A stretch of 64,000 nt of DNA, taken from positions 1-64,000 of the IMG/VR virus record IMGVR_UViG_3300033568_000010; one strand, written 5' to 3'. The translations under genes were made by a program, and so were the position numbers. Source of the stretch: a virus. Shown in pieces: positions 43 through 56,056 of this stretch (positions are counted from its first letter, which is position 1; each line of letters begins with the position of its first letter). The notes below the pieces were generated by a model. The model was not told the DNA's origin and did not search any database. It saw only the letters and a program-made list of their open reading frames with translations.

Positions 43-2055
43 GTGGGAAATAAAATCATGGATTGGAGATACCCTCTACAGAGCAAAGGATGCCCTGAGT
101 GTGAAGGGCATATTAATGCAGCAAAGGTACACGCAGAAGGGGCGGTCAGTGAAGACGCACATTACTTAGATGGTGATCCTAATCAAGTATCCAGAGGGGA
201 AGCTGAGCGCACAGGGCTAGGTAGGCTTGCTATTGCAATGCAGCCCTCCATGGAAGATGGAACAGGTGGTGGAAGTATTGATCATCACGAGCCTAATGAT
301 AATGTAGGTGACCTACGTGGAAAGATGGGCAGCTTTAAAGATCTAAAGGCTGGTAAGATTCAGGAGTGGCATCACTCTGAGGTTATTGGGTATCACCATG
401 AAGGTGCTGCTGTTTGTACAGACTGCGCTATCAAAGCAAAAGACATGCTTAATTCTAAGTGCAAGTGCAACCCTTCTGAGCACGATGCGAATGGGCTATG
501 CCAAAATAACTGTAACGGGTATGGACCAAACCCTGTGTTCTCTACAGACTCCGAAAGTCACGGGGATGTATGTGACCATTGCTCCAACACGCTACTGCCA
601 GAGGGAGTAGTAGAGGCAGGGATGGACAAGCATAAGAACCTACTAGGTAAAATAGTTGCTAAGCAGTCTGCAAGAAGCCACTGTAAGTCCTGTGGAGTTA
701 AGCACGAATGGGATGACCGTGGATTTGATAGTGAAAACAAAGTTAAAAAGTGCTGCGGAACGCACATACAGTTCTACGGTGGAAACGATGGAGACTGTGA
801 AAAATGTGGGCAGGAGTATAATTCCTCAGGACAGGCCTTACGCAGAGGCTGGCAGTATGACCACGATGAACCTTGGGATGAGAGTGTGCAGGAAGCATCT
901 GCACTATTAGGTAATCATCCCACTTCCAGTGGGAACCCGCAGAAGACCGCTGCAGAGCGGTCAGAGAAGTCACTCAAGCGTATGTATGACACTACACACC
1001 ATCGGGGTACTAAACTCCAAACTGGAGTTCCTTTAAAGGCAGCAGAGTCAACCCCTGAATCACTAGCTAAGATGAAAGCTGACTGGGATTCTGAGTCTTC
1101 AGTCTGGAAGAGAGAGCAGAGAAAGATCAGTAAGGGTAAGCTTGGAGAGGGTGTAGATGAGTCAAAAACATTAAAGCAAATAGGCAATGGTCCCCACATG
1201 ACTACCAAACACTCCTCTAGTCTAAGTAAGACTAAGTATGTCTCTTCTATTCATAAAAAAAGTGAGAATAAAGCAGCAAAGTATCTAGATAAGGCTAAAG
1301 TAAAACTACCAGAAGCCGCAGGTGAGCCTTCACAGAACAACCCAGCATACATGGGCAATCCATCTCTGATGGATATTGCTAAGAACCAGCCGGGAAGTCC
1401 TTTCTACCAGAATGCAATGGTAACACCACAGGACCGTAAAGGTTCCTATGCTAAGCCTAATAACCAGCACGGTGGAGTTGCGCCAGACACTACGGACATT
1501 CATTCAATCGATGACCCAAACATCTGGGCAGTATTCAAGGAGAATTTTACTGCAGCAGACCTCGTCTCTGACGAGATGTCTGAGGCAGAAGCTGGTCTTC
1601 TATATTCAGTACCTCAGTTTGAGTCACTGTCTCCTGAGTTCAGAGAGAAGCTTATCAAGCTGATTCAGTCTAAGATGCAGCCTGTGCAGGAAGCGCGGAC
1701 AGGTCTGCAGGACATTAAAGATAAGGCTGCAGCCCAGAACGGTGCCATGGCAGCACACACTGCCTTTAAGGGGAAGATTAGTGCTGCTAAAAATGGGCCT
1801 TTAAAGAGAAACATACAGGCCTATCTCATCAAAGGTAAAAGAGCGGATTTTGCCCACAAAATGGGCCAACCGTCTATTGCAAGCCGACTTCCAGAAGAAG
1901 TAGATTCTAAAAAAAAAATTGAACACATAGCAGAGGGACTTAGGAAGCGTGGACGCAAGAAGGGGTTCAGAGGCAAAGCAAGACGCCTTCGCCCAAAGAT
2001 TGGTAAGCTCAAGGGCATGGGTCGCTTTATGCGTGTACCTCTAAGCCTTAGGTAA
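43..2055 (+). CDS. Hypothetical Cys-rich (several CxxC zinc-ribbon-like pairs) protein with a polybasic C-terminal tail; 5' end uncertain
   Basis: 670-aa ORF starting at GTG 43. The same frame stays open back to nt 1, and there is an in-frame ATG at 58. CxxC pairs present: CPEC, CTDC, CDHC, CKSC, CEKC. 17 of the last 37 residues are K/R (RKRGRKKGFRGKARRLRPKIGKLKG...). No family recognised. Confidence 0.55.
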   Translation: MGNKIMDWRYPLQSKGCPECEGHINAAKVHAEGAVSEDAHYLDGDPNQVSRGEAERTGLGRLAIAMQPSMEDGTGGGSIDHHEPNDNVGDLRGKMGSFKDLKAGKIQEWHHSEVIGYHHEGAAVCTDCAIKAKDMLNSKCKCNPSEHDANGLCQNNCNGYGPNPVFSTDSESHGDVCDHCSNTLLPEGVVEAGMDKHKNLLGKIVAKQSARSHCKSCGVKHEWDDRGFDSENKVKKCCGTHIQFYGGNDGDCEKCGQEYNSSGQALRRGWQYDHDEPWDESVQEASALLGNHPTSSGNPQKTAAERSEKSLKRMYDTTHHRGTKLQTGVPLKAAESTPESLAKMKADWDSESSVWKREQRKISKGKLGEGVDESKTLKQIGNGPHMTTKHSSSLSKTKYVSSIHKKSENKAAKYLDKAKVKLPEAAGEPSQNNPAYMGNPSLMDIAKNQPGSPFYQNAMVTPQDRKGSYAKPNNQHGGVAPDTTDIHSIDDPNIWAVFKENFTAADLVSDEMSEAEAGLLYSVPQFESLSPEFREKLIKLIQSKMQPVQEARTGLQDIKDKAAAQNGAMAAHTAFKGKISAAKNGPLKRNIQAYLIKGKRADFAHKMGQPSIASRLPEEVDSKKKIEHIAEGLRKRGRKKGFRGKARRLRPKIGKLKGMGRFMRVPLSLR

Positions 2056-2060
2056 ATATA

Positions 2061-3746
2061 ATGTCTAATTTTAAAGAAGAGTTAGGTTATCCAATGCGTA
2101 GTTCTGGAGAAGTGGTCAAGATGAGAACTAATAAAAAAGTTAAACAGTACAGAGCGATTAGAGAAGAAAAGGAAACTAAAGCCTTGATTGCTGATAGGCT
2201 TAAGAAAGTAGGATCACACTATTTTTCTTCTGCACGACACGTAGGGCTAGCTAAAATAAAGGGAGCAAAGCCAGAAGACCTGCACGACAGGTTACGCGCT
2301 GCAGCTACAGAGTATTACTCTTTACCTGAACATGAACAGCATAGACTTCACCAAGAAAGTATGGTTCTTAGAAATAACAAACCTATGATTACTCCCTTTG
2401 GTGGAAACCCTAAGACTTCAAAAGAAACCCCCGGCATGGTAACCACGTTACTACACCTTCCTTCTCACAAGGCAAGTGGTATCAATACATGTGAATATGA
2501 ACAGGGGTGTGCCGGTGGATGTATAGACAAAACAGGAAACCCCGGTAGTGCATCAGCTAAAACACACGGTAGGTTAGATAGACTACATCACATGTACCAT
2601 AACCCACTGCATGCTATAGCACATATCGACCATGAAGTAACCAAGATGAAGAAGGTAGCTGCTAAGTCTGGTAAAAAGTTAGGCATTAGACTTAATGGAA
2701 CATCAGACCTTCCTTGGCATAAAATTGCCCCTCAAATGTTTGATAAACATAAAGATGTGCAATTCTATGACTATACCAAAAACTACGACACAATTAAAGA
2801 TACATCTTCCATTCCTAAAAACTATGACATCACGTTTAGTTCTACTGGGTTGAACCATCCCGGTAGTAACTGGCATCACGCCAAAGAGTATTTAGACAAG
2901 GGTGGAAAAGTAGCAATGACTTTTGCTCGTATGCCAAAAATTACACGTAAAGGTGTTGTTGTTGGTGGGCATCACCTGCCAACACATGTACACGATGAAG
3001 CAACTGGGAAGAAGTACAAAGTGCATAATGGAGATATGTATGACGCAAGGTCAGAGGATCATGCGGTAAGCGGAACTCCTAAAGGTGAAGGGCTTATTGT
3101 AGGCCTTTCATATAAGAGATCAAAGAAATACTCGTGGAAAAATGCCCCAAACTTTGCTGTAAAGGGTGGAAAGCCTAGAAATATAATTAACAAGTTAATC
3201 AACCACGGTAAAAATAAACAAGAAATAGTTAATTCTGAAGACGACATAGTAACTGCACATAAGGGCCTTAACCCAGAGCACTACGTTGCCAGAGATGCAC
3301 CCGCTACCCATCTCAAAGAAGCACATACCACGGCAGCAGATGTCAACAAGGATAGGTTTGGACATGTAGCTTCGTCACCTGTAAAAAGAACACATCTTCA
3401 CGGATTCTGCTTAGCTCAAACAGATTATGCCCCACACGGTGGCACTATCTGTGGAAAGGTAGCTCCTTACCTTGCTGACCATCCTTCGGAGGGTGTTATA
3501 GGTAATATGTGCAAAGCTCACGCACTTGAGTTTGGTGCTAAAATAAATGAGGCTTCAAAAGTTACATATGATAAGTCTTGCCCAAAGTGTGGGCATGCTA
3601 CTTCAAAAATGACAGCGGGTACTGAGCCTATTAAGTGGGGGTGTGCAAACCCCGACTGTGGCAAATCATGGAGTTCAGATGATGAGCCAGTGTTACGCAA
3701 AAAAGCAGCGGCGAAGAAGAAAATATTTGGTTCAATGAGTACGTAG
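2061..3746 (+). CDS. Hypothetical protein with a Cys cluster and a possible phage GP88-like core, plus C-terminal zinc ribbons
   Basis: 561-aa ORF. Motifs: TCEYEQGCAGGCIDKTGN, then IRLNGTSDLPWH and FYDYTKNYD, which recall the GP88 family from memory only. C-terminus has CPKCGH...CANPDCGKSW. The start is 5 nt after the previous stop. Confidence 0.35.
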   Translation: MSNFKEELGYPMRSSGEVVKMRTNKKVKQYRAIREEKETKALIADRLKKVGSHYFSSARHVGLAKIKGAKPEDLHDRLRAAATEYYSLPEHEQHRLHQESMVLRNNKPMITPFGGNPKTSKETPGMVTTLLHLPSHKASGINTCEYEQGCAGGCIDKTGNPGSASAKTHGRLDRLHHMYHNPLHAIAHIDHEVTKMKKVAAKSGKKLGIRLNGTSDLPWHKIAPQMFDKHKDVQFYDYTKNYDTIKDTSSIPKNYDITFSSTGLNHPGSNWHHAKEYLDKGGKVAMTFARMPKITRKGVVVGGHHLPTHVHDEATGKKYKVHNGDMYDARSEDHAVSGTPKGEGLIVGLSYKRSKKYSWKNAPNFAVKGGKPRNIINKLINHGKNKQEIVNSEDDIVTAHKGLNPEHYVARDAPATHLKEAHTTAADVNKDRFGHVASSPVKRTHLHGFCLAQTDYAPHGGTICGKVAPYLADHPSEGVIGNMCKAHALEFGAKINEASKVTYDKSCPKCGHATSKMTAGTEPIKWGCANPDCGKSWSSDDEPVLRKKAAAKKKIFGSMST

Positions 3747-7955: not shown

Positions 7956-8459
7956 ATGCCTTTACTTACAGCAAGACACCTAGCAGAAATGCGGGGTCGA
8001 TACGAACCACAGCGGTCTTTCGACTGGCTGATTGAGTTTGAAATTGGAAGTGCAAGAGAAATTATTAAACTAGCAGTTGATCAGGCTTTCATGCCTACGG
8101 AATCAAACGAACCAATCGAACTTCACTATGGTAACGAAGTTCAGTACGCAGCCGGTAAGGCTCGTTGGGAGTTTGGCCAGCTTTCTATCCGTGACATGGT
8201 TGACCTTGACATTGCTAGGCAGATTTCAGAATGGCGTAAGACAGTATATAACCCAATCACTGGTGATATTTTCTTCGCTAAAGACTACAAGAAACAGGGT
8301 ACGATTATTCTTCTTTCGCCTGAGGGTTCAATTCAGCGCAAATGGAAAGTAGAAGGACTCTGGCCTACTGCAGTCTCTTACGGTCAGCTTGACTACGCTG
8401 CTAACGATATTGTTAGAATTCAGTGTACAATTGCATTTGACCGTGCATACCGCATCTGA
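7956..8459 (+). CDS. Tail tube protein
   Basis: 167-aa ORF directly after the sheath gene with an AGGAGG SD. Size and position are typical of contractile-tail tube proteins. Confidence 0.7.
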   Translation: MPLLTARHLAEMRGRYEPQRSFDWLIEFEIGSAREIIKLAVDQAFMPTESNEPIELHYGNEVQYAAGKARWEFGQLSIRDMVDLDIARQISEWRKTVYNPITGDIFFAKDYKKQGTIILLSPEGSIQRKWKVEGLWPTAVSYGQLDYAANDIVRIQCTIAFDRAYRI

Positions 8460-8582: not shown

Positions 8583-9368
8583 ATGTCAAAAGTAGCAGAG
8601 TATATGACTCTTCCATCTATGGGACTTTTTTATGGTGGCGCAATTCCAGAGGGTAAGGTTGAATACTTCCCAATGACGGCCAGAGAAGAAAAGATCTTAG
8701 CAGGCGGGTTTAAAGATGGTAACCAATTGATCGATACGATCATTAAAGCCTGTGTCCCAACCCTCACTATCCCTGTAGAAGACCTTCTAATTGGGGATAA
8801 GTTCTTTATGATGTTGGTTATTCGTGCAGCTTCCTACGGAAGCAAATACGGCATGATGATCACTTGCGACTGCGGACAGCAGTTCCGTCACGAAGTAGAC
8901 CTAGGGTTTACTGGGGAAGACGCAGAAGAGGGGTTTGACGAGGAATTCAGCAACGTGTTTAAGATTAAGGTACCAGAGGAAGGGGCTAAAGAGCCGTTCC
9001 TAGTACAGTTACCAAAGTCCAAGGATATGGTCGAATTTCGCCTTCTAAGGGGCAAAGACGAAAAAGCCATTGCGAAGTACGCAGAACAGAATATGTCGAA
9101 GCGTAAGTCAAAAGAAGACGGAAATCCAGCCTATATCTACCGTATTGCCAGACACATTGTGTCAGTTAACGGGGACGAGCTTTCAACGATGGACACTATG
9201 GCCTTCGTAGAAGACCTTATCGGCTATGATTCTGCGGCTCTACGCAATGCAATTGATGCGGTTGATGTGGGCATTGATACCCAATTTACTACGGAGTGTC
9301 CGAAGTGCGACAGCGTGATTGAATCATCGCTCGCATTAGGGCCTGAGTTTTTTCGCCCTAAGTCCTGA
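8583..9368 (+). CDS. T4 gp26-like hub/tail assembly chaperone (zero-frame product)
   Basis: N-terminus TLPSMGLFYGG...VEYFPMTAREEKIL resembles gp26-type baseplate hub proteins. Zn ribbon CDCG...CPKCDS. Located between the tube and tape measure genes. Confidence 0.55.
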   Translation: MSKVAEYMTLPSMGLFYGGAIPEGKVEYFPMTAREEKILAGGFKDGNQLIDTIIKACVPTLTIPVEDLLIGDKFFMMLVIRAASYGSKYGMMITCDCGQQFRHEVDLGFTGEDAEEGFDEEFSNVFKIKVPEEGAKEPFLVQLPKSKDMVEFRLLRGKDEKAIAKYAEQNMSKRKSKEDGNPAYIYRIARHIVSVNGDELSTMDTMAFVEDLIGYDSAALRNAIDAVDVGIDTQFTTECPKCDSVIESSLALGPEFFRPKS

Positions 9369-45120: not shown

Positions 45121-48048
45121 TTGCTTAAGTGTACGCTTTGCCCTCTTGCACATCAGCAAGGGCTACAGACCAACTGCATGGGTTCTTATTTTAGCATTGC
45201 TAATAATGAGTACTCTCCACTCATTACTCTGGTAATAGAGTCTCCCTCTTTAGAGGATGACGCAGCACACTATCCTTTTTCTGATTTTGCATCCACAGGC
45301 AAAACTCCGGTAGCCCAAGTTGTATGGGATGTAATTGACCAGCTACAGATCCCAAGACAGTACATTAATGTTGTTCCTCTCGTTAGGTGCGCGTCTCGCA
45401 CGGGAGTTAAGTTTACAAGTGAAAATATTATCCCTTGCCTGAACCACCTCTGGGATGAGCTTAGAACATACAAGCCTAAGGTGCTGGTATGCATGGGACT
45501 ACCCGTAATTAAAGTACTCGCTGGTGTAAGTAAGTTAGCCTCTGCAAGAGGGATGTATGGTCATATTACTCTTCCAAAAAAGTACCCTGCTGTTCCAGAC
45601 GATCTAACAGATATTGAAGTCACTTCCACGGTATCTGCAGGTGCTGCGTGGATGCAGTCTGTTACTGGTACTGGGTCTGCTCGTTCACAGCTAGTCGAAG
45701 ACTTGCGATCTGTGTGGATGAAGGTATCAGGCACAGCTAAGGAGGGTACAAATGACTTTAAGTGGCTTGAAACCTATGAAGATATTGATTCTTATTTTCT
45801 AGAGGTAGAGCGCGACTGCAAAGAAGGGAATTCCCCCGGTGTAATTGTAGATATCGAGTCTAACCAAATGTTTGACCCTTGGACAGATAAGTCCAAGTTA
45901 GTTGCTGTGGGTTTTTGTCATAAGGCTGGGTATGCAAGAGCAGTAAAGGTATGTCATAAAGACCAGCAGCTATTCAATAACGGAGGACAGCCTGTATGGG
46001 AAGCGTTCTGCCGTCGTTTACAAACGCTTTTTGACAGGGCTAGAGTAGGTGGTTGGAATTTAAAGTTTGACTATAAATGGATAAAGGCGCATACTGGAGC
46101 AATTATACAGGACGTGTTTTTTGATGGGCATCTAGCTCATTACTTGCTGTACAATATGGACGGTAAGAAGCACGATCTTAAGAATGCTATTGTAGAAGAG
46201 CTTGGTATTTCTATCCCTGAAGCAGAGTTGCATGCAGACATGCAGAGGCTCAAGAGAGAAGGGTACGCAAAGGAAGACATCCACATGGGTAATGTAGACG
46301 AGGATATTCTTCTACGCTATCTGTGCGGAGACGTAGACTCTACGTTTAGACTCTACGAGCACTTAGACCCCATGCTGGATAATGACTACTGCTATAAGGA
46401 CGAGGAGTATCAGTCCAAGTACAAAGGAATGTCATTCAGAAAGCTTTATACTAACCTTATGCTGCCGTGCGTACTTGCTCTTCCAGAGATTGAAGAGAAT
46501 GGAATCAAGGTAGATCCTATGATGCTGGACTACCTTATTGATTCATACCCCGATAGATTGAAGCTCTTGTTTGACCCTATTAGGGAGTTCCCTGCAGCAC
46601 AGGAAGTATTGGGATTAGTTATAGCTGACGGTAAGCCAGAGGAGAATCTAGTAAGCTCTTATGTTTACCTGTCTAAGCTTTTCTATGAAGTTATCAAGTT
46701 TCCTACGGTGGAACTAAAGCTGCAACCTAAAACTAGAAAAACCAAGAGTGGAGATATTCAAACATACTACCCTACAGGTAAGCCTATTAGAGAGCAGCTT
46801 ACTGTATGGGCAGTCAATAATAACAGACCTGATCTTGTAAAGCTTATTAACGATATTTCTGCATACAAGAAAGCAACGAAGCTGTATACTTCATATGTTA
46901 CTAAAATTCATGGGTTCATGGGCAATCACGGTTACCTTAGAACTAACTACAACATAGGGGGAACGACTACAGGTAGAGCATCTACATCGTCTCCTTCTCT
47001 CCACATTCTTCCAAAGAAGAGTGACTTGAAGAAGATTTTTAAGTCTAGGTGGCACGAGGAGGGTGGTGTTATAATGCAAGCGGACTTCTCTCAGCTTGAA
47101 ATGAGAGTTGTTGCTGCCCTTGCAAAAGAAGATAAACTTATTAATATTTTCAAGAGCGGAGTAGATACTCACCGGCAGATGGCTGCTAAGCTCAACAAAA
47201 AAGCAGAAGAGGATGTAACTGCTGAAGAGCGGGATAAAGGAAAGACAATCTCCTTTGGAGTATTATACGGAATGCAAGCCGAATCAATGGCAGCTAAAAC
47301 CGGCCTAACCAAAGAAGAGTGTGTGGAAAAGATTGGTAACTTTTTTGATGAGTTTCCGCACATTGCGAAGTGGATGAAGAAGCAGTATAGAGATGCAAAG
47401 AAGAGGGCTGTAATCAGGCAGGGTACTGGAAGGTGTCAGTTCAACCCTAAGCTTAAATTGTATGACCCAACAAGTGACGGGTGGGAAATTGTAGATTACC
47501 AGTTTGACCAGTATGGGTACATCACTACAGAGTTTGGTAGAAAGAGAATACTGCAGGAAGCAAACCACTGGAAGTCCAGCTTTGCAGCTAAAGCAGAGCG
47601 AAAAGCGTTCAACACTCCGGTACAGGGTACTGCGTCAGATATTGCACTAGAAGCGCTGATCAGGATTTTCTTTAGACTTAAGAAAGAAAAGTTACAGAGT
47701 AAGCTGTTTGGATGGATTCATGACTCTATTGAGATAGACACCCACCCAACGGAAATTTTTCAAGTATACACAATATTGAAGGAGGAGATGGAAGAGATGC
47801 CCAGCCGACTGCACAAGTGGTTGAACGTTCCGCTTAAGGTTTCATTTGAGGTAGGCCATGGCTGGGGCTACATGGTTGAAATTAAAAATATGGACACAAC
47901 AACTAGGAAATTAGTTCTGGAGGGTGACGGTGATAACGTAAATTCTGTTGTACGCGCCCTAGGAACAGTGTATAATACTTCACAGATAAACGAAGAAATT
48001 GAAAAAAATGGTAAGGTAGTGGGAATCAAAGCCACTATACAGTGTTAA
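45121..48048 (+). CDS. Family A DNA polymerase with N-terminal UDG-like (family 4-type) domain and 3'-5' exonuclease domain
   Basis: ADFSQLEMRVVA (motif A), RDKGKTISFGVLYGM (motif B), IHDSIEID (motif C). VDIESN is the exo I motif. N-terminus is CTLCPL...LVIESPSLEDD. TTG start 4 nt after GGAGG. Confidence 0.85.
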   Translation: MLKCTLCPLAHQQGLQTNCMGSYFSIANNEYSPLITLVIESPSLEDDAAHYPFSDFASTGKTPVAQVVWDVIDQLQIPRQYINVVPLVRCASRTGVKFTSENIIPCLNHLWDELRTYKPKVLVCMGLPVIKVLAGVSKLASARGMYGHITLPKKYPAVPDDLTDIEVTSTVSAGAAWMQSVTGTGSARSQLVEDLRSVWMKVSGTAKEGTNDFKWLETYEDIDSYFLEVERDCKEGNSPGVIVDIESNQMFDPWTDKSKLVAVGFCHKAGYARAVKVCHKDQQLFNNGGQPVWEAFCRRLQTLFDRARVGGWNLKFDYKWIKAHTGAIIQDVFFDGHLAHYLLYNMDGKKHDLKNAIVEELGISIPEAELHADMQRLKREGYAKEDIHMGNVDEDILLRYLCGDVDSTFRLYEHLDPMLDNDYCYKDEEYQSKYKGMSFRKLYTNLMLPCVLALPEIEENGIKVDPMMLDYLIDSYPDRLKLLFDPIREFPAAQEVLGLVIADGKPEENLVSSYVYLSKLFYEVIKFPTVELKLQPKTRKTKSGDIQTYYPTGKPIREQLTVWAVNNNRPDLVKLINDISAYKKATKLYTSYVTKIHGFMGNHGYLRTNYNIGGTTTGRASTSSPSLHILPKKSDLKKIFKSRWHEEGGVIMQADFSQLEMRVVAALAKEDKLINIFKSGVDTHRQMAAKLNKKAEEDVTAEERDKGKTISFGVLYGMQAESMAAKTGLTKEECVEKIGNFFDEFPHIAKWMKKQYRDAKKRAVIRQGTGRCQFNPKLKLYDPTSDGWEIVDYQFDQYGYITTEFGRKRILQEANHWKSSFAAKAERKAFNTPVQGTASDIALEALIRIFFRLKKEKLQSKLFGWIHDSIEIDTHPTEIFQVYTILKEEMEEMPSRLHKWLNVPLKVSFEVGHGWGYMVEIKNMDTTTRKLVLEGDGDNVNSVVRALGTVYNTSQINEEIEKNGKVVGIKATIQC

Positions 48049-48055
48049 AGTTACT

Positions 48056-48520
48056 ATGTCAGACCCAATAGATAAAAGCGTGTTTGCTATTTTGGAAGAG
48101 ATTCCAAGCGAGCTACTGAGTAGTGAAGAGACGCAACGATATGTAGAAGTGCTGCAGTCAATTAACATCGGTCACAAAGAAATAGATGACCTGCGAGAAG
48201 AGCAGGTTGATCTCACTAGGACTGTAGTAAATCTAGCATTTGCCGTAGCTAACAGAGTTCGTGTATTAAAGTCGGAGTACGCTCCGATCAAGTCTAAAAT
48301 CATTGAAGAGGTGCAAGCGGCATCAAAGCATAAACTTACAAATGAGATGAGGGAACAATTAGTAGCGGGTCACCCATCCAGTGCTATTTATATTGATGCA
48401 ATTTCAATTGGAGAACTACTATTAGATCAACTTTCAGGGATAAGAAAAACACTAGACTATAGATACCAGATGGTATATGAAAAAAGTGTGGAAGCGCGGC
48501 ATGACCGCAAAGTTGGATAA
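48056..48520 (+). CDS. Possible UvsY-like recombination mediator
   Basis: 154 aa. TNEMREQLVAGHPSSAIYIDAISIGELLLDQLSGIRKTL parallels T4 UvsY SEMKTVLSADKDVLKVDTSLQYWGILLDFCSGALDAI. Adjacent to the SSB and recombinase genes. Confidence 0.35.
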   Translation: MSDPIDKSVFAILEEIPSELLSSEETQRYVEVLQSINIGHKEIDDLREEQVDLTRTVVNLAFAVANRVRVLKSEYAPIKSKIIEEVQAASKHKLTNEMREQLVAGHPSSAIYIDAISIGELLLDQLSGIRKTLDYRYQMVYEKSVEARHDRKVG

Positions 48521-48537: not shown

Positions 48538-49620
48538 ATGTCATACCTTAACGATCTAGCAGCATACGCAGACAATCGAGCAGCAAATGGTGGTAACAAC
48601 GAAAGTGACTGGAGCGACGATAAGTTCCGGTTCTTCAATATGAAGATTGATGGCAAGCGCATTGGAGACAACCTTTTCCGTATGTTTCTTATGCCTTATA
48701 CGTCCTCTACTACAGGTAACATGGAAATCTTCCGCTGGGTGTATAAGCACTTCCAGCTTCCAGTTGGTATTGACGGTGATGGACGAGTAGTTAAAGTTAC
48801 TAGAACTTGCCTAGCAAAAATGGACAACGCAGAGGCCAATGGAGCACATTGCCCGTTCTGTGATGTAATCAAACATGCATATTCAGAGCATGGTAATCCT
48901 AAGGGTAACGCTCTGCGTCGGACAGAGGCTACTGCACAGATCTATGCGAACTGTCTCCCACTTGCAGTACTTGGGAAGGTTCCTGATCCCAATGAGTATC
49001 CTTACCTCCCCCACATTGTTACACTCAAGAAGACTAACTACGACTGGATTGCTGATTTTATTCTTCGTAACGATTGTGCAGCTAGCCCTGACCTAGATCC
49101 ATTTAACCCATTTAATGCACTTCCCCTTGAGATCAATAAGAAGCGCACGGGAACAGAAGTGCAGAACGTCAAGTATGAGGCCGCGTTTAACCTTAAGCGT
49201 ATGCCTTTTGCTAACAGCGAGGAAGACCTAGAGACACTGTACGAAGAGATTTATGACCTCTACAGCATCTTTAAGTATCCTGATAAGGAAGGAATGTATG
49301 AGTCCTATCTGGCAGAAGCAGAGTACTTCGCCACACAGGCGAAGAGCATGCTTGTCGGTAACAAGCCTTCGGTAGGTGCAAGCCCGTTTAGAAGCCCAGC
49401 ACCGGCACCACAGGCACCTGTAGCTGCTCCTGTGGCCGCTCCAGCGGCAGCACCGACTGCAGCCCCTCAGGCGACAGCAAAGCCTTCCTCAATGCCACGA
49501 GCGTATGCTCCTGCACCTGTAGCAGCACCTGCTGCTCCCGCTGCTGCACAGAGGGCTGTACCTAAGGCTCCGTCCAAGGCTCCTGCTGTAGTTACTTCGG
49601 AATCAGAAAGTCCTTTTTAG
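48538..49620 (+). CDS. T4 gp32-like ssDNA-binding protein with an Ala/Pro-rich tail
   Basis: LFRMFLMPY, RTCLAKMDNAEANGAHCPFCDVI (Zn site) and RRTEATAQIYANCL parallel gp32 VIRFLPS, ETCSSTHGDYDSCPVCQYI and KRKTSYWANIL. The C-terminus ends SESESPF. Confidence 0.6.
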   Translation: MSYLNDLAAYADNRAANGGNNESDWSDDKFRFFNMKIDGKRIGDNLFRMFLMPYTSSTTGNMEIFRWVYKHFQLPVGIDGDGRVVKVTRTCLAKMDNAEANGAHCPFCDVIKHAYSEHGNPKGNALRRTEATAQIYANCLPLAVLGKVPDPNEYPYLPHIVTLKKTNYDWIADFILRNDCAASPDLDPFNPFNALPLEINKKRTGTEVQNVKYEAAFNLKRMPFANSEEDLETLYEEIYDLYSIFKYPDKEGMYESYLAEAEYFATQAKSMLVGNKPSVGASPFRSPAPAPQAPVAAPVAAPAAAPTAAPQATAKPSSMPRAYAPAPVAAPAAPAAAQRAVPKAPSKAPAVVTSESESPF

Positions 49621-49639
49621 GAGGGGGTACACAGATTGA

Positions 49640-49661
49640 GGGGGCATCTTCGGATGCCCCC
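49640..49661 (+). terminator. 9-bp GC-rich hairpin with a UUCG loop downstream of the SSB gene
   Basis: GGGGGCATC / TTCG / GATGCCCCC followed by GTTTCTGT. Confidence 0.5.
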
Positions 49662-49912
49662 GTTTCTGTATCTGCTGCTACCCCCATTTTACGTGACCCA
49701 ACCAAAATAAATACAGAAACAGGTAAACCTTTCTGCATTGGAAATGAGGATGCCTCCTCTCCTGTTTGCCTTACGTGTAGGCTTAGTATCGTCTGTAGAG
49801 AGATGCGTAAGCTAAAGAAGTCAGACCCTTCTGCAGTGGCAGAGATGATGAAAAGCGTAGTTGGTATAGACGATTCATTTGATGACGATGATGATGACGT
49901 AGAGGGAGAGTA

Positions 49913-51049
49913 ATGGGCAAGAAAACCGCATCGGAGCTTCAAGAAGCACTGAAAGAAATAAATAAAACAATTAAGGGTGAAGGTCTTAAGCTTATGTCTG
50001 AAGATCTTCACTCAGACATTCCTTTTTTTATCCCAACTGGTATCCCTACGCTAGATGCAGCAATAGGTGGCGGCTTGCCAGTTGGGCGGGTTGTTGAAAT
50101 CTTCGGAAAGCAGCAAGCAGGTAAATCGACACTAGCTATTTCCGCGTGTATTCAAACACAAAAGTTAGGCGGATTGGTTGTATATCTTGACGTAGAGAAC
50201 GCACTAGCTAAGGCCCGTGCAGAGTATCTAGGTCTAGACCTAACACAGGCAGTAGCTCTTGAGCCTTCTACGATGGAAGAGGCGTATAAGTACCTGCAGC
50301 ATCTAATTACTAAGTTTGGTACGTCAGACGATTATCCTTTTATTCTTGTTGTATGGGATACCCTTGCATTCACACTGTCCGAGACAGAGGTAGATGAAAA
50401 GGGAGAGATCAAAGCAGACATGGGTAAGCGAGCACAGAACATTCGACGCATTATGCGTAGAATGATTAAGCTGTGTGCTAACACTAACGTGTGCTTCCTT
50501 TCACTCAATCACATCACAGAAAAGATTGGTGGGTTTGTTACTCCCGGTGCCTATGAGGTTCCCGGTGGGTCTGCATTTAAATATGGTGCCAGTGTTCAGG
50601 TATTACTTCGTCCAGACAACTCTAAAAAGATCATGACTGACGATGAAGAGGATCAGGTGGGTGTACACGTCAAGTTTAGAATTGAAAAGACACGCCTATC
50701 TCCTCCTAAGCGCGAAGTATATGGAAGACTGAATTTCTATAGCGGGTTTGATCCTGCCGGTAGTGTACTGGACTATCTAATTGAAAGCGGTTTAGCGGTA
50801 AAAGAGGGAGTTAAGTATAACATCCCCGTACCAGAGTCAATGGGTTCCGTAGTTCAAATCTCTACTGGAGCAGTAGGGGATAAGAAGTTTCATGAGCTAT
50901 GGGACAGCAGTCAAGAGCTACAAGACTTTCTAACTAATCTAGTTAAGTCTGACTACGATGCGATTATCCCTTGGAAGAACCAGACTACTGCGCCTGCTGT
51001 TGAAACAGAAGCAACTAAAAAGAAAACTAAGTCTAAGGTAACCGCATAA
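49913..51049 (+). CDS. RecA/UvsX-family recombinase
   Basis: IPTGIPTLDAAIGGGLPVGRVVEIFGKQQAGKSTLAI, YLDVENAL and VPGGSAFKYGASV align closely by eye with E. coli RecA. Confidence 0.85.
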   Translation: MGKKTASELQEALKEINKTIKGEGLKLMSEDLHSDIPFFIPTGIPTLDAAIGGGLPVGRVVEIFGKQQAGKSTLAISACIQTQKLGGLVVYLDVENALAKARAEYLGLDLTQAVALEPSTMEEAYKYLQHLITKFGTSDDYPFILVVWDTLAFTLSETEVDEKGEIKADMGKRAQNIRRIMRRMIKLCANTNVCFLSLNHITEKIGGFVTPGAYEVPGGSAFKYGASVQVLLRPDNSKKIMTDDEEDQVGVHVKFRIEKTRLSPPKREVYGRLNFYSGFDPAGSVLDYLIESGLAVKEGVKYNIPVPESMGSVVQISTGAVGDKKFHELWDSSQELQDFLTNLVKSDYDAIIPWKNQTTAPAVETEATKKKTKSKVTA

Positions 51050-52622: not shown

Positions 52623-53048
52623 ATGAAAGTGTGTAGTAAATGTGGTGTAGAAAAAGAGCTTACCGAGTTTTGGAAAAACAAACAGGCTAAGTCAGGGTAT
52701 AACTATTCTTGCAGAACGTGTATGGGGGCACACAGCAGAAGCCCTAAGACCAGAGCAGCAGGAAGAAAGTACGCTAGGGCGTGTAGGCAGAAAGCATTGG
52801 ACCACTACGGAAGTGTATGTGCCTGTTGTGGTGAATCCACTTATGAATTTTTAGTAATAGACCACATTAATGGTGGTGGCACTAAACATAGAAAAGGCAT
52901 AGGTGTTAAACGAGCAGGTGCTGTTATATATAGGTGGCTGAAGCAGAATAATTATCCTGAAGGATTTAGGGTGCTTTGTCAGAATTGCAATTCAGCGTTG
53001 GGGCACTATAAATATTGCCCTCATACTAAAATGGAGAACATTAAGTGA
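52623..53048 (+). CDS. Free-standing HNH endonuclease
   Basis: CACCGES...LVIDHINGGG...H...LCQNCNS is an HNH core. N-terminal zinc ribbon CSKCG...CRTC. Starts at TAAATG and ends inside a GTGA overlap. Confidence 0.75.
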   Translation: MKVCSKCGVEKELTEFWKNKQAKSGYNYSCRTCMGAHSRSPKTRAAGRKYARACRQKALDHYGSVCACCGESTYEFLVIDHINGGGTKHRKGIGVKRAGAVIYRWLKQNNYPEGFRVLCQNCNSALGHYKYCPHTKMENIK

Positions 53049-56000
53049 AATTTCTATGCTACTCAGACGTGCATCTGGATGAAGACAATGACCCAACTAA
53101 TTCTCAGTATGAGTTGTTTATAAGTACTGCTAAATGGATTAGGGATACTATCCTTGCAGTTAAGCCTGACTATTTGGTCAATCTTGGTGACACCGTACAT
53201 AGAGACGGGGGCATGTCCACGAAGACAGTACAGTTATTTTTTGAGTTTTTTGAAATAATTAAGTCAGCCACAGAAGAGCTAGGAATACCCCATTTTGTTT
53301 TAACTGGTAATCACGACATCTATCAACGCGACGGTGTACTCCATGTGATGAACCCTCTTCGGTGGACAAACGCACAGGTAATAGATACACCGACACTCTA
53401 TAATCTAAAAGATAGTAAGTTTGACTTAAAAGTGGGGTTTTATCCTTATAGCAGAAGTAGTGAAGAGTTTGCTACAACGTTAGCAGCGTGGGAGCCAAAT
53501 CTAGTATTTATACACATGGACATTGTTGATGGTTATATGAACTCTGGGGTTAAAAGCTCAACCGGAGTATCTTCCATTCATAGATCTACAGAAATTTACG
53601 ACGGACACTACCATCTACCACAAAACGTGGGGTCTGTTACCGTAGTAGGGGCACCACAGTATACTCAGTTCCGTGACCTTGATCCGTTCTCAGTCCCTCG
53701 CAGAGGGATGCTTCTCATCGAAAAGGAAACGGCTAAGAAGAAGTCAAAGCTGACACGTATTACAAACCCTCACACCAAGTTCTATGGTAAGTTTGTGTCG
53801 GATAGTAATGACGTGAACGAGGTGTATAAGCAGTATGTAGATTGGTATACTGAACTCTGCAGCCTATACCCACATGGGTCTGTTACGCAGAGCCTTCAGC
53901 ACATTTGGTTTTCTGCTCCAGCAGTAGTGCTTGGTATGCTAGAGTCCAACTTTCGTTGGGAAGACTTTGGCACTGTTAAGTTCACACCAAACGATGTAGT
54001 GGCCCGTGTAGATGAGTCCACTCCTATTACCGTGGACATGTCTAACGAAGCAGCACTAACACAGTATGCGGAAGAGGCAGAGTGTTCATGTGGTGGGCAC
54101 AACCTTGAAATCGGCAAGCAGCTTCTCAAGCGAGCGGAAGACTATGCGGTAGCTAAAAACACAGGCAAGGAGGTTAAGTTTGTATCTCTTGAAATTAATA
54201 ACTTCATGAGCTTTGAACATGCTGAAGTTCCTCTAGCGGATAAGGGGTTTGTTCTAGTTGAGGGTGTTAATAAAGATGACCCTACAGTAGACTCTAACGG
54301 ATCGGGTAAAAGTGCAATTGCAGAGGCACTTCTGTGGGTACTGTTTGACCGTACCGCACGAGGGATTAAAGCGGACGAGATTATCAAGAGAGGAAGCAAG
54401 AAGGCACAGGTTAAAGTAGAGTTTACCGTAGACGGTAAACCGTTCATTGTAACACGGGAACGTACTAAGGGAAAGCCGGTTGCACGGGTAGTATCAGATA
54501 AAGACCTTACCCCTCATGATCAGCGGGAAGTAAACGACCTGATTACTTCTATTCTTGGGATTGGCTTTGACCAGTTTCTTCTGATGGTAGTTTTCAGTCA
54601 GGGGTTTGATACTAGATTCTCCTCTATGTCGGACACCGAGAGGAAAGAGCTTCTTGAGAGCTACTTGGGCATTGAAGTATATGAACAGGCAAAGCTTCTA
54701 GCAGCTACGGAAGTGAAAGCGCACAAGGAAGAGAAGAACGCAGTAACCTATAACATTGCTAAATTAGAAACACAGCTGGTCACACTGCAGAACCATGTGC
54801 TCAGCGTCCTAGAAGCAAAGGAAAAAGCAGAAAAGGAAGCCAAAGAAGAGCTAGTTAATTTAGAGGCCAAAATTGCCCTACAGGCGAAGGCAGTGGCTGC
54901 TGCCAGCCAGCCTCTGGCTGGAATGGAATCGTCGCTTACAGAGGCAAAAGCGCTTGTTTCTGAGGCTAAAGCCACTACGTCCGTGGCAAAGTCTTCCGTA
55001 GAACTGGAACGAACTGAAGTAAACGCCATTGCAGGTAGAATCAGCAAGGGGCAGGGCATGGTTGCCCAGCTAAGGTCAAACATTCATCTACTTAAAAACA
55101 AGAAGGTAGAGGATACGTGCCCTACCTGTAAGCAATCTCTTCCGGTGGACAGTGTACAGGAGGTCTTAAATCATAATCTGGAGGAGATAGCTACATCTGA
55201 GGCTAAATGTCAGGAGTATGAAGGTCTTCTAATGGAGTTGGAGATCAGACTACAGGAAGCCAACGAGAAGCTTGAAAGTGCCAAAGCATCACTCAAGGAG
55301 TGCGAGCAGTTTGTGGCTGAACGAGAGGCAACTGTTAATAAACTACAGTTAGCCTACATGCAGCAGAAGAGTGAAGTTCAGCAGCAGAAAGCCCTGCTGG
55401 AAGCATACACAGAACAGCACAAAGCCAAGAGGCCAACAGCGGAACACTTTGATGTTCTTCTTGCGGAAGCAAATGAAAAGACGGCAGCTTCTGCGGAAGA
55501 ACTGGAAGATAGTAAGTCTAAGCTTGTAACAGTGGAAGCCTATGTGCATGAGTATGAGTACTGGGAATCTGCGTTTGATCCTACGGGCGTGAGATCTGTA
55601 ATTCTTAGAAACGCAATCAATTCATTAAATGAAATACTGGCTAAGCTGTGCGGAACTGTCACCGGCAATTCATTTATGGTGCAGTTGTCCTCTACTAAGG
55701 AACTCAAGTCAAAGAAAGAGGCAGTTAATAAAATAGATATTCTAGTTACACCTGACGGTAGTTACAAGTCAAGCTCTGGAGGAGAACGTAGGAAGATTGA
55801 CCTGATACTTAACACAGCAGTATCCATGTTTGCTAAGTCCATGTCTGGTTTCTCCACTAACATACTGGTTGCTGATGAAGTACTAGATAATTTGGATCTT
55901 ACTGCCTCACAACACGTACTTACCATGTTTGATGAAATATCTAAGGGCGATAATACCGTTCTGCTCATAAGCCACAACCCAAGCGTAAAACCGTTGATCC

Positions 56001-56056
56001 CAACGGCATGGACTGTGGTTAAATCAAATCAAACGTCAACACTTCAAATTAACTAA
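53045..56056 (+). CDS. Single-polypeptide Mre11/SbcD-like nuclease fused to a Rad50/SbcC-like ATPase
   Basis: N-terminus YSDVHLD, NLGDTVHRDG and LTGNHD are calcineurin-like phosphoesterase motifs. From about aa 372: INNFMSFEH...DSNGSGKSAIAEAL (Walker A), a long coiled coil with a CPTC zinc hook, SSGGERRKIDL (signature) and ILVADEVLDNLD (Walker B). Confidence 0.8.
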   Translation: MKFLCYSDVHLDEDNDPTNSQYELFISTAKWIRDTILAVKPDYLVNLGDTVHRDGGMSTKTVQLFFEFFEIIKSATEELGIPHFVLTGNHDIYQRDGVLHVMNPLRWTNAQVIDTPTLYNLKDSKFDLKVGFYPYSRSSEEFATTLAAWEPNLVFIHMDIVDGYMNSGVKSSTGVSSIHRSTEIYDGHYHLPQNVGSVTVVGAPQYTQFRDLDPFSVPRRGMLLIEKETAKKKSKLTRITNPHTKFYGKFVSDSNDVNEVYKQYVDWYTELCSLYPHGSVTQSLQHIWFSAPAVVLGMLESNFRWEDFGTVKFTPNDVVARVDESTPITVDMSNEAALTQYAEEAECSCGGHNLEIGKQLLKRAEDYAVAKNTGKEVKFVSLEINNFMSFEHAEVPLADKGFVLVEGVNKDDPTVDSNGSGKSAIAEALLWVLFDRTARGIKADEIIKRGSKKAQVKVEFTVDGKPFIVTRERTKGKPVARVVSDKDLTPHDQREVNDLITSILGIGFDQFLLMVVFSQGFDTRFSSMSDTERKELLESYLGIEVYEQAKLLAATEVKAHKEEKNAVTYNIAKLETQLVTLQNHVLSVLEAKEKAEKEAKEELVNLEAKIALQAKAVAAASQPLAGMESSLTEAKALVSEAKATTSVAKSSVELERTEVNAIAGRISKGQGMVAQLRSNIHLLKNKKVEDTCPTCKQSLPVDSVQEVLNHNLEEIATSEAKCQEYEGLLMELEIRLQEANEKLESAKASLKECEQFVAEREATVNKLQLAYMQQKSEVQQQKALLEAYTEQHKAKRPTAEHFDVLLAEANEKTAASAEELEDSKSKLVTVEAYVHEYEYWESAFDPTGVRSVILRNAINSLNEILAKLCGTVTGNSFMVQLSSTKELKSKKEAVNKIDILVTPDGSYKSSSGGERRKIDLILNTAVSMFAKSMSGFSTNILVADEVLDNLDLTASQHVLTMFDEISKGDNTVLLISHNPSVKPLIPTAWTVVKSNQTSTLQIN

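Follow-up and report, generated by a model that had tools for sequence, protein, structure and literature searches.

A candidate programmed -1 frameshift at the end of a phage gp32-type SSB gene, predicted to append a four-cysteine domain to part of the protein

Introduction

Between the SSB and RecA genes of this virus lies a gap spanned by an open frame whose first canonical start codon falls far inside it, which raises the question of how such a frame could be translated. The original prediction, made from the DNA letters, offered four answers: initiation at an ATT codon, recoding from the SSB gene, a structured leader for the recombinase gene, and a decaying gene. Here we compare the locus with its relatives and argue that the SSB gene probably ends in a programmed -1 ribosomal frameshift signal, giving SSB isoforms of 360 and 458 aa; we put the probability of this reading at about 0.88.

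Results

The locus and its open frame

The stretch of DNA analysed (hereafter the window) covers the first 64 kb of a virus record that is complete at 163,760 bp and has direct terminal repeats and a G+C content of 45%. The replication block is ordered helicase, primase, family A polymerase, 154-aa gene, SSB, RecA and 5'-3' exonuclease; most relatives also have a gene of 153-163 aa upstream of SSB. The features considered below are the following.

48056-48520, + strand: 154-aa gene upstream of SSB, in the UvsY position
48538-49620, + strand: gp32-type SSB, 0-frame ORF, 360 aa, 39.4 kDa
49611-49617, + strand: putative slip site for the -1 shift, T_CCT_TTT (codons for Pro and Phe), of which T_TTT is the invariant core, with TAG 49618-49620 directly after
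49618-49622, + strand: spacer of 5 nt, TAGGA, within which the 0-frame stop lies
49617-49913, + strand: -1 frame extension, 98 codons and TAA (predicted long isoform 458 aa, 49.7 kDa)
49623-49685, + strand: putative 3' stimulatory stem-loop, with an apical 9-bp hairpin and UUCG loop at 49640-49661
49692-49802, + strand: four-cysteine mini-domain RD-x10-P-x-C-x10-C-x2-C-x5-C, first Cys at 49734-49736
49869-49910, + strand: acidic tail at the C-terminus of the long form; the last codons overlap a purine-rich stretch before the RecA start
49913-51049, + strand: RecA/UvsX-like recombinase (PF00154, E 5e-36; phrog_97)

The gap frame, whose codons start at positions divisible by 3, lies at -1 to the SSB gene. 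It is real: from stop to stop (49566-49913) it holds 115 codons and gives the peptide originally quoted. It had been described as open from at least 49581, which is correct, although it opens already at 49566, and its TAA (49911-49913) does overlap the RecA ATG at 49913 as TAATG. Of the canonical starts in the frame ATG 49803 comes first, but it is not, as had been stated, the sole one, since GTG 49836, ATG 49845 and ATG 49848 come after it; ATG 49803 falls 3' of all four cysteines. An SD-like AGGAGGGGG at 49619-49627 and an in-frame ATT at 49635 are present as described. So is the 9-bp hairpin, which turned out, however, to be merely the apex of the longer stem-loop listed above.

A few other observations were made in and near the window. 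Start-poor open frames also follow the ends of the genes at 7956-8459 (66 codons, -1) and 8583-9368 (60 codons, +1); neither has an evident slip site and they are probably ordinary. The family A DNA polymerase (45121-48048) has relatives with an N-terminal uracil-DNA-glycosylase-like domain (PF03167). At 51049 RecA and the exonuclease overlap as TAATG, and a gene of 253-271 aa without a Pfam match, found between the two in L002, L007, L012 and L016, is absent. A single 1003-aa ORF at 53045-56056 combines a metallophosphoesterase (SbcD/Mre11-like) with an SMC-type ATPase (SbcC/Rad50-like); in the same place L002 has a 958-aa gene with Metallophos, SMC_N and AAA_23 matches.

The putative slip site

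A full HMMER search gave 18 matches. The comparison below rests on 12 distinct split loci, that is, the window and 11 relatives from JGI, Logan, ENA and NCBI assemblies, with core identities of 21-43%. In every one of the 12 the cysteine domain lies in the -1 frame, which is open from before the SSB stop. A +1 shift and stop readthrough were considered and rejected: the +1/-2 frames of the compared loci close within 1-23 codons, and readthrough of the SSB stop in the window would add 29 codons that do not include the cysteine domain.

The SSB gene ends AGT CCT TTT TAG, which one base back reads TCC TTT TTA GGA GGG; the predicted junction of the long isoform is ...SESPF-LGGGTQ.... CCT TTT TAG is also present in L002 and L007. 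A slip-type heptamer is found 0-3 codons 5' of the SSB stop in 12 of 12 split loci, and it is a perfect X_XXY_YYZ in eight (C_CCT_TTT once, G_GGT_TTT three times, A_AAA_AAA and G_GGA_AAA twice each). T_CCT_TTT of the window, G_CCT_TTT and G_GAT_TTT each have one deviation and G_ACT_TTT of L016 has two. The deviation in the window is in the P-site, where G-U re-pairing is possible, and the nearest relative, L007, has the perfect C_CCT_TTT. Near the ends of 155 genes of the same genome, by comparison, a perfect heptamer occurs once and one with at most one deviation 20 times.

All eight members of the window's clade have NNT_TTT. The sole bases invariant among them are TTTT and, 5 nt further on, the GGGG that opens the stem, together with the A before it. 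The slip may be tandem or may involve a single tRNA; since T_TTT is invariant and the P-site is loose in three loci, the alignment suggests that re-pairing of tRNA-Phe would be the decisive step, to which the adjacent stop might contribute. In a plant virus, a stop 3 nt after G_GAU_UUU is reported to be important (PMC5009743).

The same source lists G_GGU_UUU and G_GAU_UUU among -1 sites and simple 3' stem-loops among bacterial stimulators (dnaX). An internal SD 9-14 nt 5' of the site is present in dnaX and many IS elements but is optional, being absent for cso2 (PMC5009743). Among the split loci no 5' SD stimulator is conserved: the window has GGA at 9 nt, and GGAGG at 10 nt is seen in L126 alone. 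The frameshift rate at the SSB site may be low, because in E. coli A_AAA_AAA and U-rich heptamers are reported to be much weaker than A_AAA_AAG (PMC5009743). The genome has 12 tRNA genes (G000 83075-126279, outside the window), none of them for Phe or Pro, so that host tRNAs would read the slip site. The phage set includes an Ile tRNA with anticodon TAT.

The 3' stem-loop

The stem-loop of the window starts 5 nt after the TTT codon and has a predicted energy of -38.1 kcal/mol in a 70-nt window (z -5.6; z -4.9 over 49600-49740). A stem of at least -12 kcal/mol begins 3-8 nt past the heptamer in 12 of 12 split loci, compared with 26 of 155 gene ends of this genome, and the mean helix score is 13.3 at the sites against 7.8 +/- 2.1 within the same genes. 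Within the clade, position 5 of the stem is a C-G, U-G or U-A pair. The arms are wholly different in L017, L018 and L125, where spacing and pairing are nonetheless kept. The 3' arms were picked by pairing, so that the comparison is no formal covariation test, and in L002, L012 and L016 the folds have weak z-scores. Of the features of a -1 cassette that can be examined in sequence, the locus lacks a perfect heptamer and the optional 5' SD and shows the others. The cassette spans about 75 nt.

The extension and its fused homologues

The P and the four Cys of the mini-domain are invariant in 14 split and fused members, and the domain is 43% identical over 37 aa (E 6e-6) to the C-terminus of P0013, a relative in which it is fused to the SSB in frame. 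Compared with relatives, the extension has nucleotide identities of 0.57, 0.70 and 0.32 at the first, second and third codon positions; of 111 identical residues, 72 are written with different codons. On these comparisons the extension protein is under purifying selection. Conservation of its amino-acid sequence in relatives, which the original prediction had named as a test, is therefore present. Extensions are 44-115 aa long across the split loci, and an acidic tail ends all seven complete ones in the eight-member clade.

The cysteine domain matches nothing in Pfam, PHROG, Atlas, BFVD or PDB, no second copy was found in the genome, and its model is weak (pLDDT 65); a weak model with no match does not amount to a new fold. 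The members that bear the domain share no common Pfam or PHROG family. The C-x2-C-x5-C spacing is also found in Fe-S proteins, and we infer that the domain may bind a metal, as Zn or Fe-S. A predicted complex of RecA with the extension scored 0.00, which is informative neither way.

Besides P0013, the domain is fused in frame in P0011, P0014, P0017, P0018 and P0020, in genes upstream of RecA in L117, L118, L127, L129, L130 and L132, and in the cultured Bacillus phages SP-15 and HSE3. The fused relatives keep the Pol-SSB-RecA order. Judged across the family, the gap frame is a C-terminal domain of the SSB and no separate gene, since the same P and four Cys domain is fused in relatives. Of the four answers first proposed, recoding from the SSB gene is the one strongly supported, by the conserved -1 frame, heptamer, spacer and stem as well as by these fusions.

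Two further loci deserve mention. In L133 the gene upstream of the recombinase (1714-2817) has a cysteine domain with Arg for the first Cys, and in L130 the ORF in the RecA position (1110-3653) is 848 aa long, more than twice the usual length, possibly through an intein or insertion.

Searches of other kinds added little. Tblastn with the window SSB or P0013 against cultured phages gave no match, the cultured relatives being found via more distant members only; pattern-based searches, whether with the SSB or with the gap peptide, gave nothing in viral and metagenome contigs, and DNA motif scans for the cassette returned unrelated loci only. Via its distant members the family reaches the SSBs of SPO1 (gp32.4), SP-10, SSU5 and nickie.

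The eight NNT_TTT loci form one clade (support 100/99), and the 12 split loci thus represent about three independent groups, not twelve events. The A_AAA_AAA and G_GGA_AAA loci are placed among fused members of the sister group; fusion is also the state of the most distant members. Between split and fused states the trees require 3-4 changes; a single origin of the split forms is borderline (AU p 0.050).

The stop of the extension overlaps the start of the next gene in the seven clade members with data, as TAATG (window and L016), ATGA (L002), GTGA (L012) or over 17-32 nt (L007, L011 and L013), and the stop of the fused P0018 overlaps the next start as well. No such overlap is seen in L017, L018, L125 and L126.

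The SSB core and its short form

The SSB consists of a core (about residues 1-275), an Ala/Pro linker and the end SESESPF-stop. Twelve of 16 family members match phrog_1192 (SSB). By sequence the core has no match in PDB. Its model (pLDDT 84) matches the T4 gp32 core 1GPC (E 3e-9, TM 0.72 by target); the top six PDB fold matches are all gp32 or RB69 SSB (E 3e-9 to 2e-5), the next having E 0.05. H71 of the core is invariant and C91, C105 and C108 are at least 90% conserved; the four may form a His/Cys3 zinc site like that of gp32.

The predicted long form ends in an Asp/Glu run, the short form in just a short acidic PF tip. The short-form ends SESESPF (window 49600-49620) and DDDERMPF (L002 1090-1119) resemble the tip of bacterial SSB. 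Such tips occur only in the sub-clade whose stop directly follows the slip site; L007 ends KKDPF. The PF ending may be a mere by-product of the CCT TTT site, since the other clade members end otherwise (FQ, FQKG, FQQG, FPQG or FRQG).

Alternative readings

Two alternatives survive best, both at a very low probability. In one of them RNA polymerase, slipping at the run, adds one U or A and the same two proteins result. The A7 runs of L017 and L018 and the T run of all clade members would suit such slippage. The runs are just T4-T5 in the eight-member clade, however, and A4 in L125 and L126, and they keep the phasing of a tRNA slip; moreover, the conserved stem lies 3' of the run, where it is untranscribed when the polymerase is there and is placed to block a ribosome.

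The other, which we consider just as improbable, is a separate small gene, started at the non-canonical ATT 49635 behind AGGAGG or translated by re-initiation. The SD-like AGGAGGGGG does lie 7 nt 5' of this ATT, AGGGG is invariant in the eight-member clade, and gene callers predict ORFs of 40-86 aa in some relatives. The ATT and most of the SD are nevertheless paired within the -38 kcal/mol stem, and no start is kept there in relatives, which leaves the proposed ATT initiation unsupported. Start positions are not conserved across the split loci, nor is any start codon at the gap, near-cognate starts included. A canonical start before the first Cys is absent in L007, L126 and the window and elsewhere scattered, at offsets of 10-59 codons. 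A separate gene would also leave the fixed frame and the heptamers unexplained.

Slightly less probable still is an intrinsic terminator or leader that lowers RecA expression, the long form being its by-product. The hairpin at 49640-49661 followed by GTTTCTGT does score as terminator-like, but five such sites were found where 3.4 +/- 1.9 are expected, and no U-tract follows the stems of relatives, a weak one being seen in the window alone. That the amino acids of the extension are conserved across relatives speaks against a by-product and against the purely structural leader first envisaged; a side role as terminator is conceivable in the window phage alone.

Finally, an assembly error or the recent decay of a once continuous gene can practically be dismissed. 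The break does fall at a homopolymer, T5, and there are homologues in which the gene is continuous. Assemblies from JGI, Logan, ENA and NCBI nevertheless share the break, several of them in 9-13 contigs, and across deep branches the extension stays intact and under selection. An independent run (X1, contigs and probably DNA) is identical over 49565-49714 with no gap, which argues against a homopolymer error; its single variant (49829 T>C) is silent in the -1 frame.

Discussion

A model for two SSB isoforms

The programmed -1 frameshift could operate as follows. Ribosomes translating the SSB gene would meet the stable stem-loop 5 nt past T_CCT_TTT. The majority would end at the TAG and release the 360-aa SSB with its acidic PF tip, while some would slip one base back, tRNA-Phe re-pairing from UUU to UUU; re-pairing of tRNA-Pro from CCU to UCC would need a first-position G-U pair. 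The shifted ribosomes would append 98 residues, namely a linker, the putative metal-binding four-cysteine mini-domain and the acidic tail, and would terminate at the TAATG overlap with the start of RecA. With the gp32 ssDNA-binding core common to both, the isoforms could form mixed filaments, in which the number of subunits displaying the cysteine domain would depend on how often ribosomes shift. Translation of RecA may be coupled to the shifted ribosomes, given that the extension stop overlaps the start of the next gene in clade members.

What the domain would do is harder to say. Judging from gene order and from what gp32 tails do, we give roughly even odds to a docking role: the acidic tail and the cysteine domain would bind partners in replication or recombination, and the shift would limit the share of filament subunits able to do so. 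A more elaborate scheme, which we regard as rather doubtful, gives the site two roles in the phage recombination module, switching tails and setting ratios, its signal having arisen or been rebuilt at least two or three times among always-fused relatives, as NNT_TTT, A_AAA_AAA and G_GGA_AAA. If there were such a tail switch, the host-SSB-like PF tip of the short form would recruit host proteins, and the long form would recruit phage partners through its cysteine domain and acidic tail; if the ratio were so set, shifted ribosomes alone would arrive at the TAATG overlap, and one slip rate would thereby fix the proportions of short SSB, long SSB and RecA.

Comparison with known systems

The SSB described here has the same core fold as T4 and RB69 gp32 (1GPC, 2A1K), and it shares with the family of gp32 and the SPO1 gp32.4, SP-10 and SSU5 SSBs (phrog_1192) a His and three Cys in the core and a RecA/UvsX gene alongside. 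The SSBs of SPO1, SP-10, nickie, SSU5, Mel-JY01 and Molly, in contrast, end without the four-Cys domain and have no such -1 extension. SP15_093 of SP-15 and gp120 of HSE3, annotated as hypothetical, do carry a low-complexity linker and then a P-x-C...C-x2-C-x5-C domain upstream of RecA, but as an in-frame fusion with a single product and no acidic tail past the domain.

In the literature searched, which included few subscription papers, we found no frameshift in any SSB gene, gp32 included. The accessible part of PMC5009743 has no mention of SSB. The phage frameshifts known to date lie mostly in structural or tail-assembly genes (PMC5009743); the PRFect data (PMC10885494) contain one frameshifted gene per genome. 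The present locus would extend them to a replication protein of gp32 type, in a case that is well conserved. Gene callers truncate such SSBs and miss the undescribed four-cysteine domain. With fused and split versions in one family and three heptamer classes, these loci offer a ready comparison for the origin of a programmed shift, which may show why a phage wants the domain on only some of its SSB subunits.

Lambda gpG/gpGT and T7 gene 10A/10B likewise add a C-terminal domain by a -1 shift late in a phage ORF. Those are tail-assembly or capsid genes, whereas here a replication/recombination protein is concerned; the SSB loci differ further in keeping a 3' stem-loop at fixed spacing and in having close relatives that encode the long form without a shift. 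In E. coli dnaX the shift yields the short form, whereas in the SSB it would yield the long one. As proposed for the SSB loci, dnaX yields a replication protein in two lengths (tau/gamma), a simple 3' stem-loop accompanying its -1 shift, and the domain that gpGT gains is described as binding another partner in a fixed molar ratio (PMC5009743 for both). The signals themselves differ: dnaX combines A_AAA_AAG with a 5' SD, whereas the SSB loci have NNT_TTT, A_AAA_AAA or G_GGA_AAA and no conserved SD.
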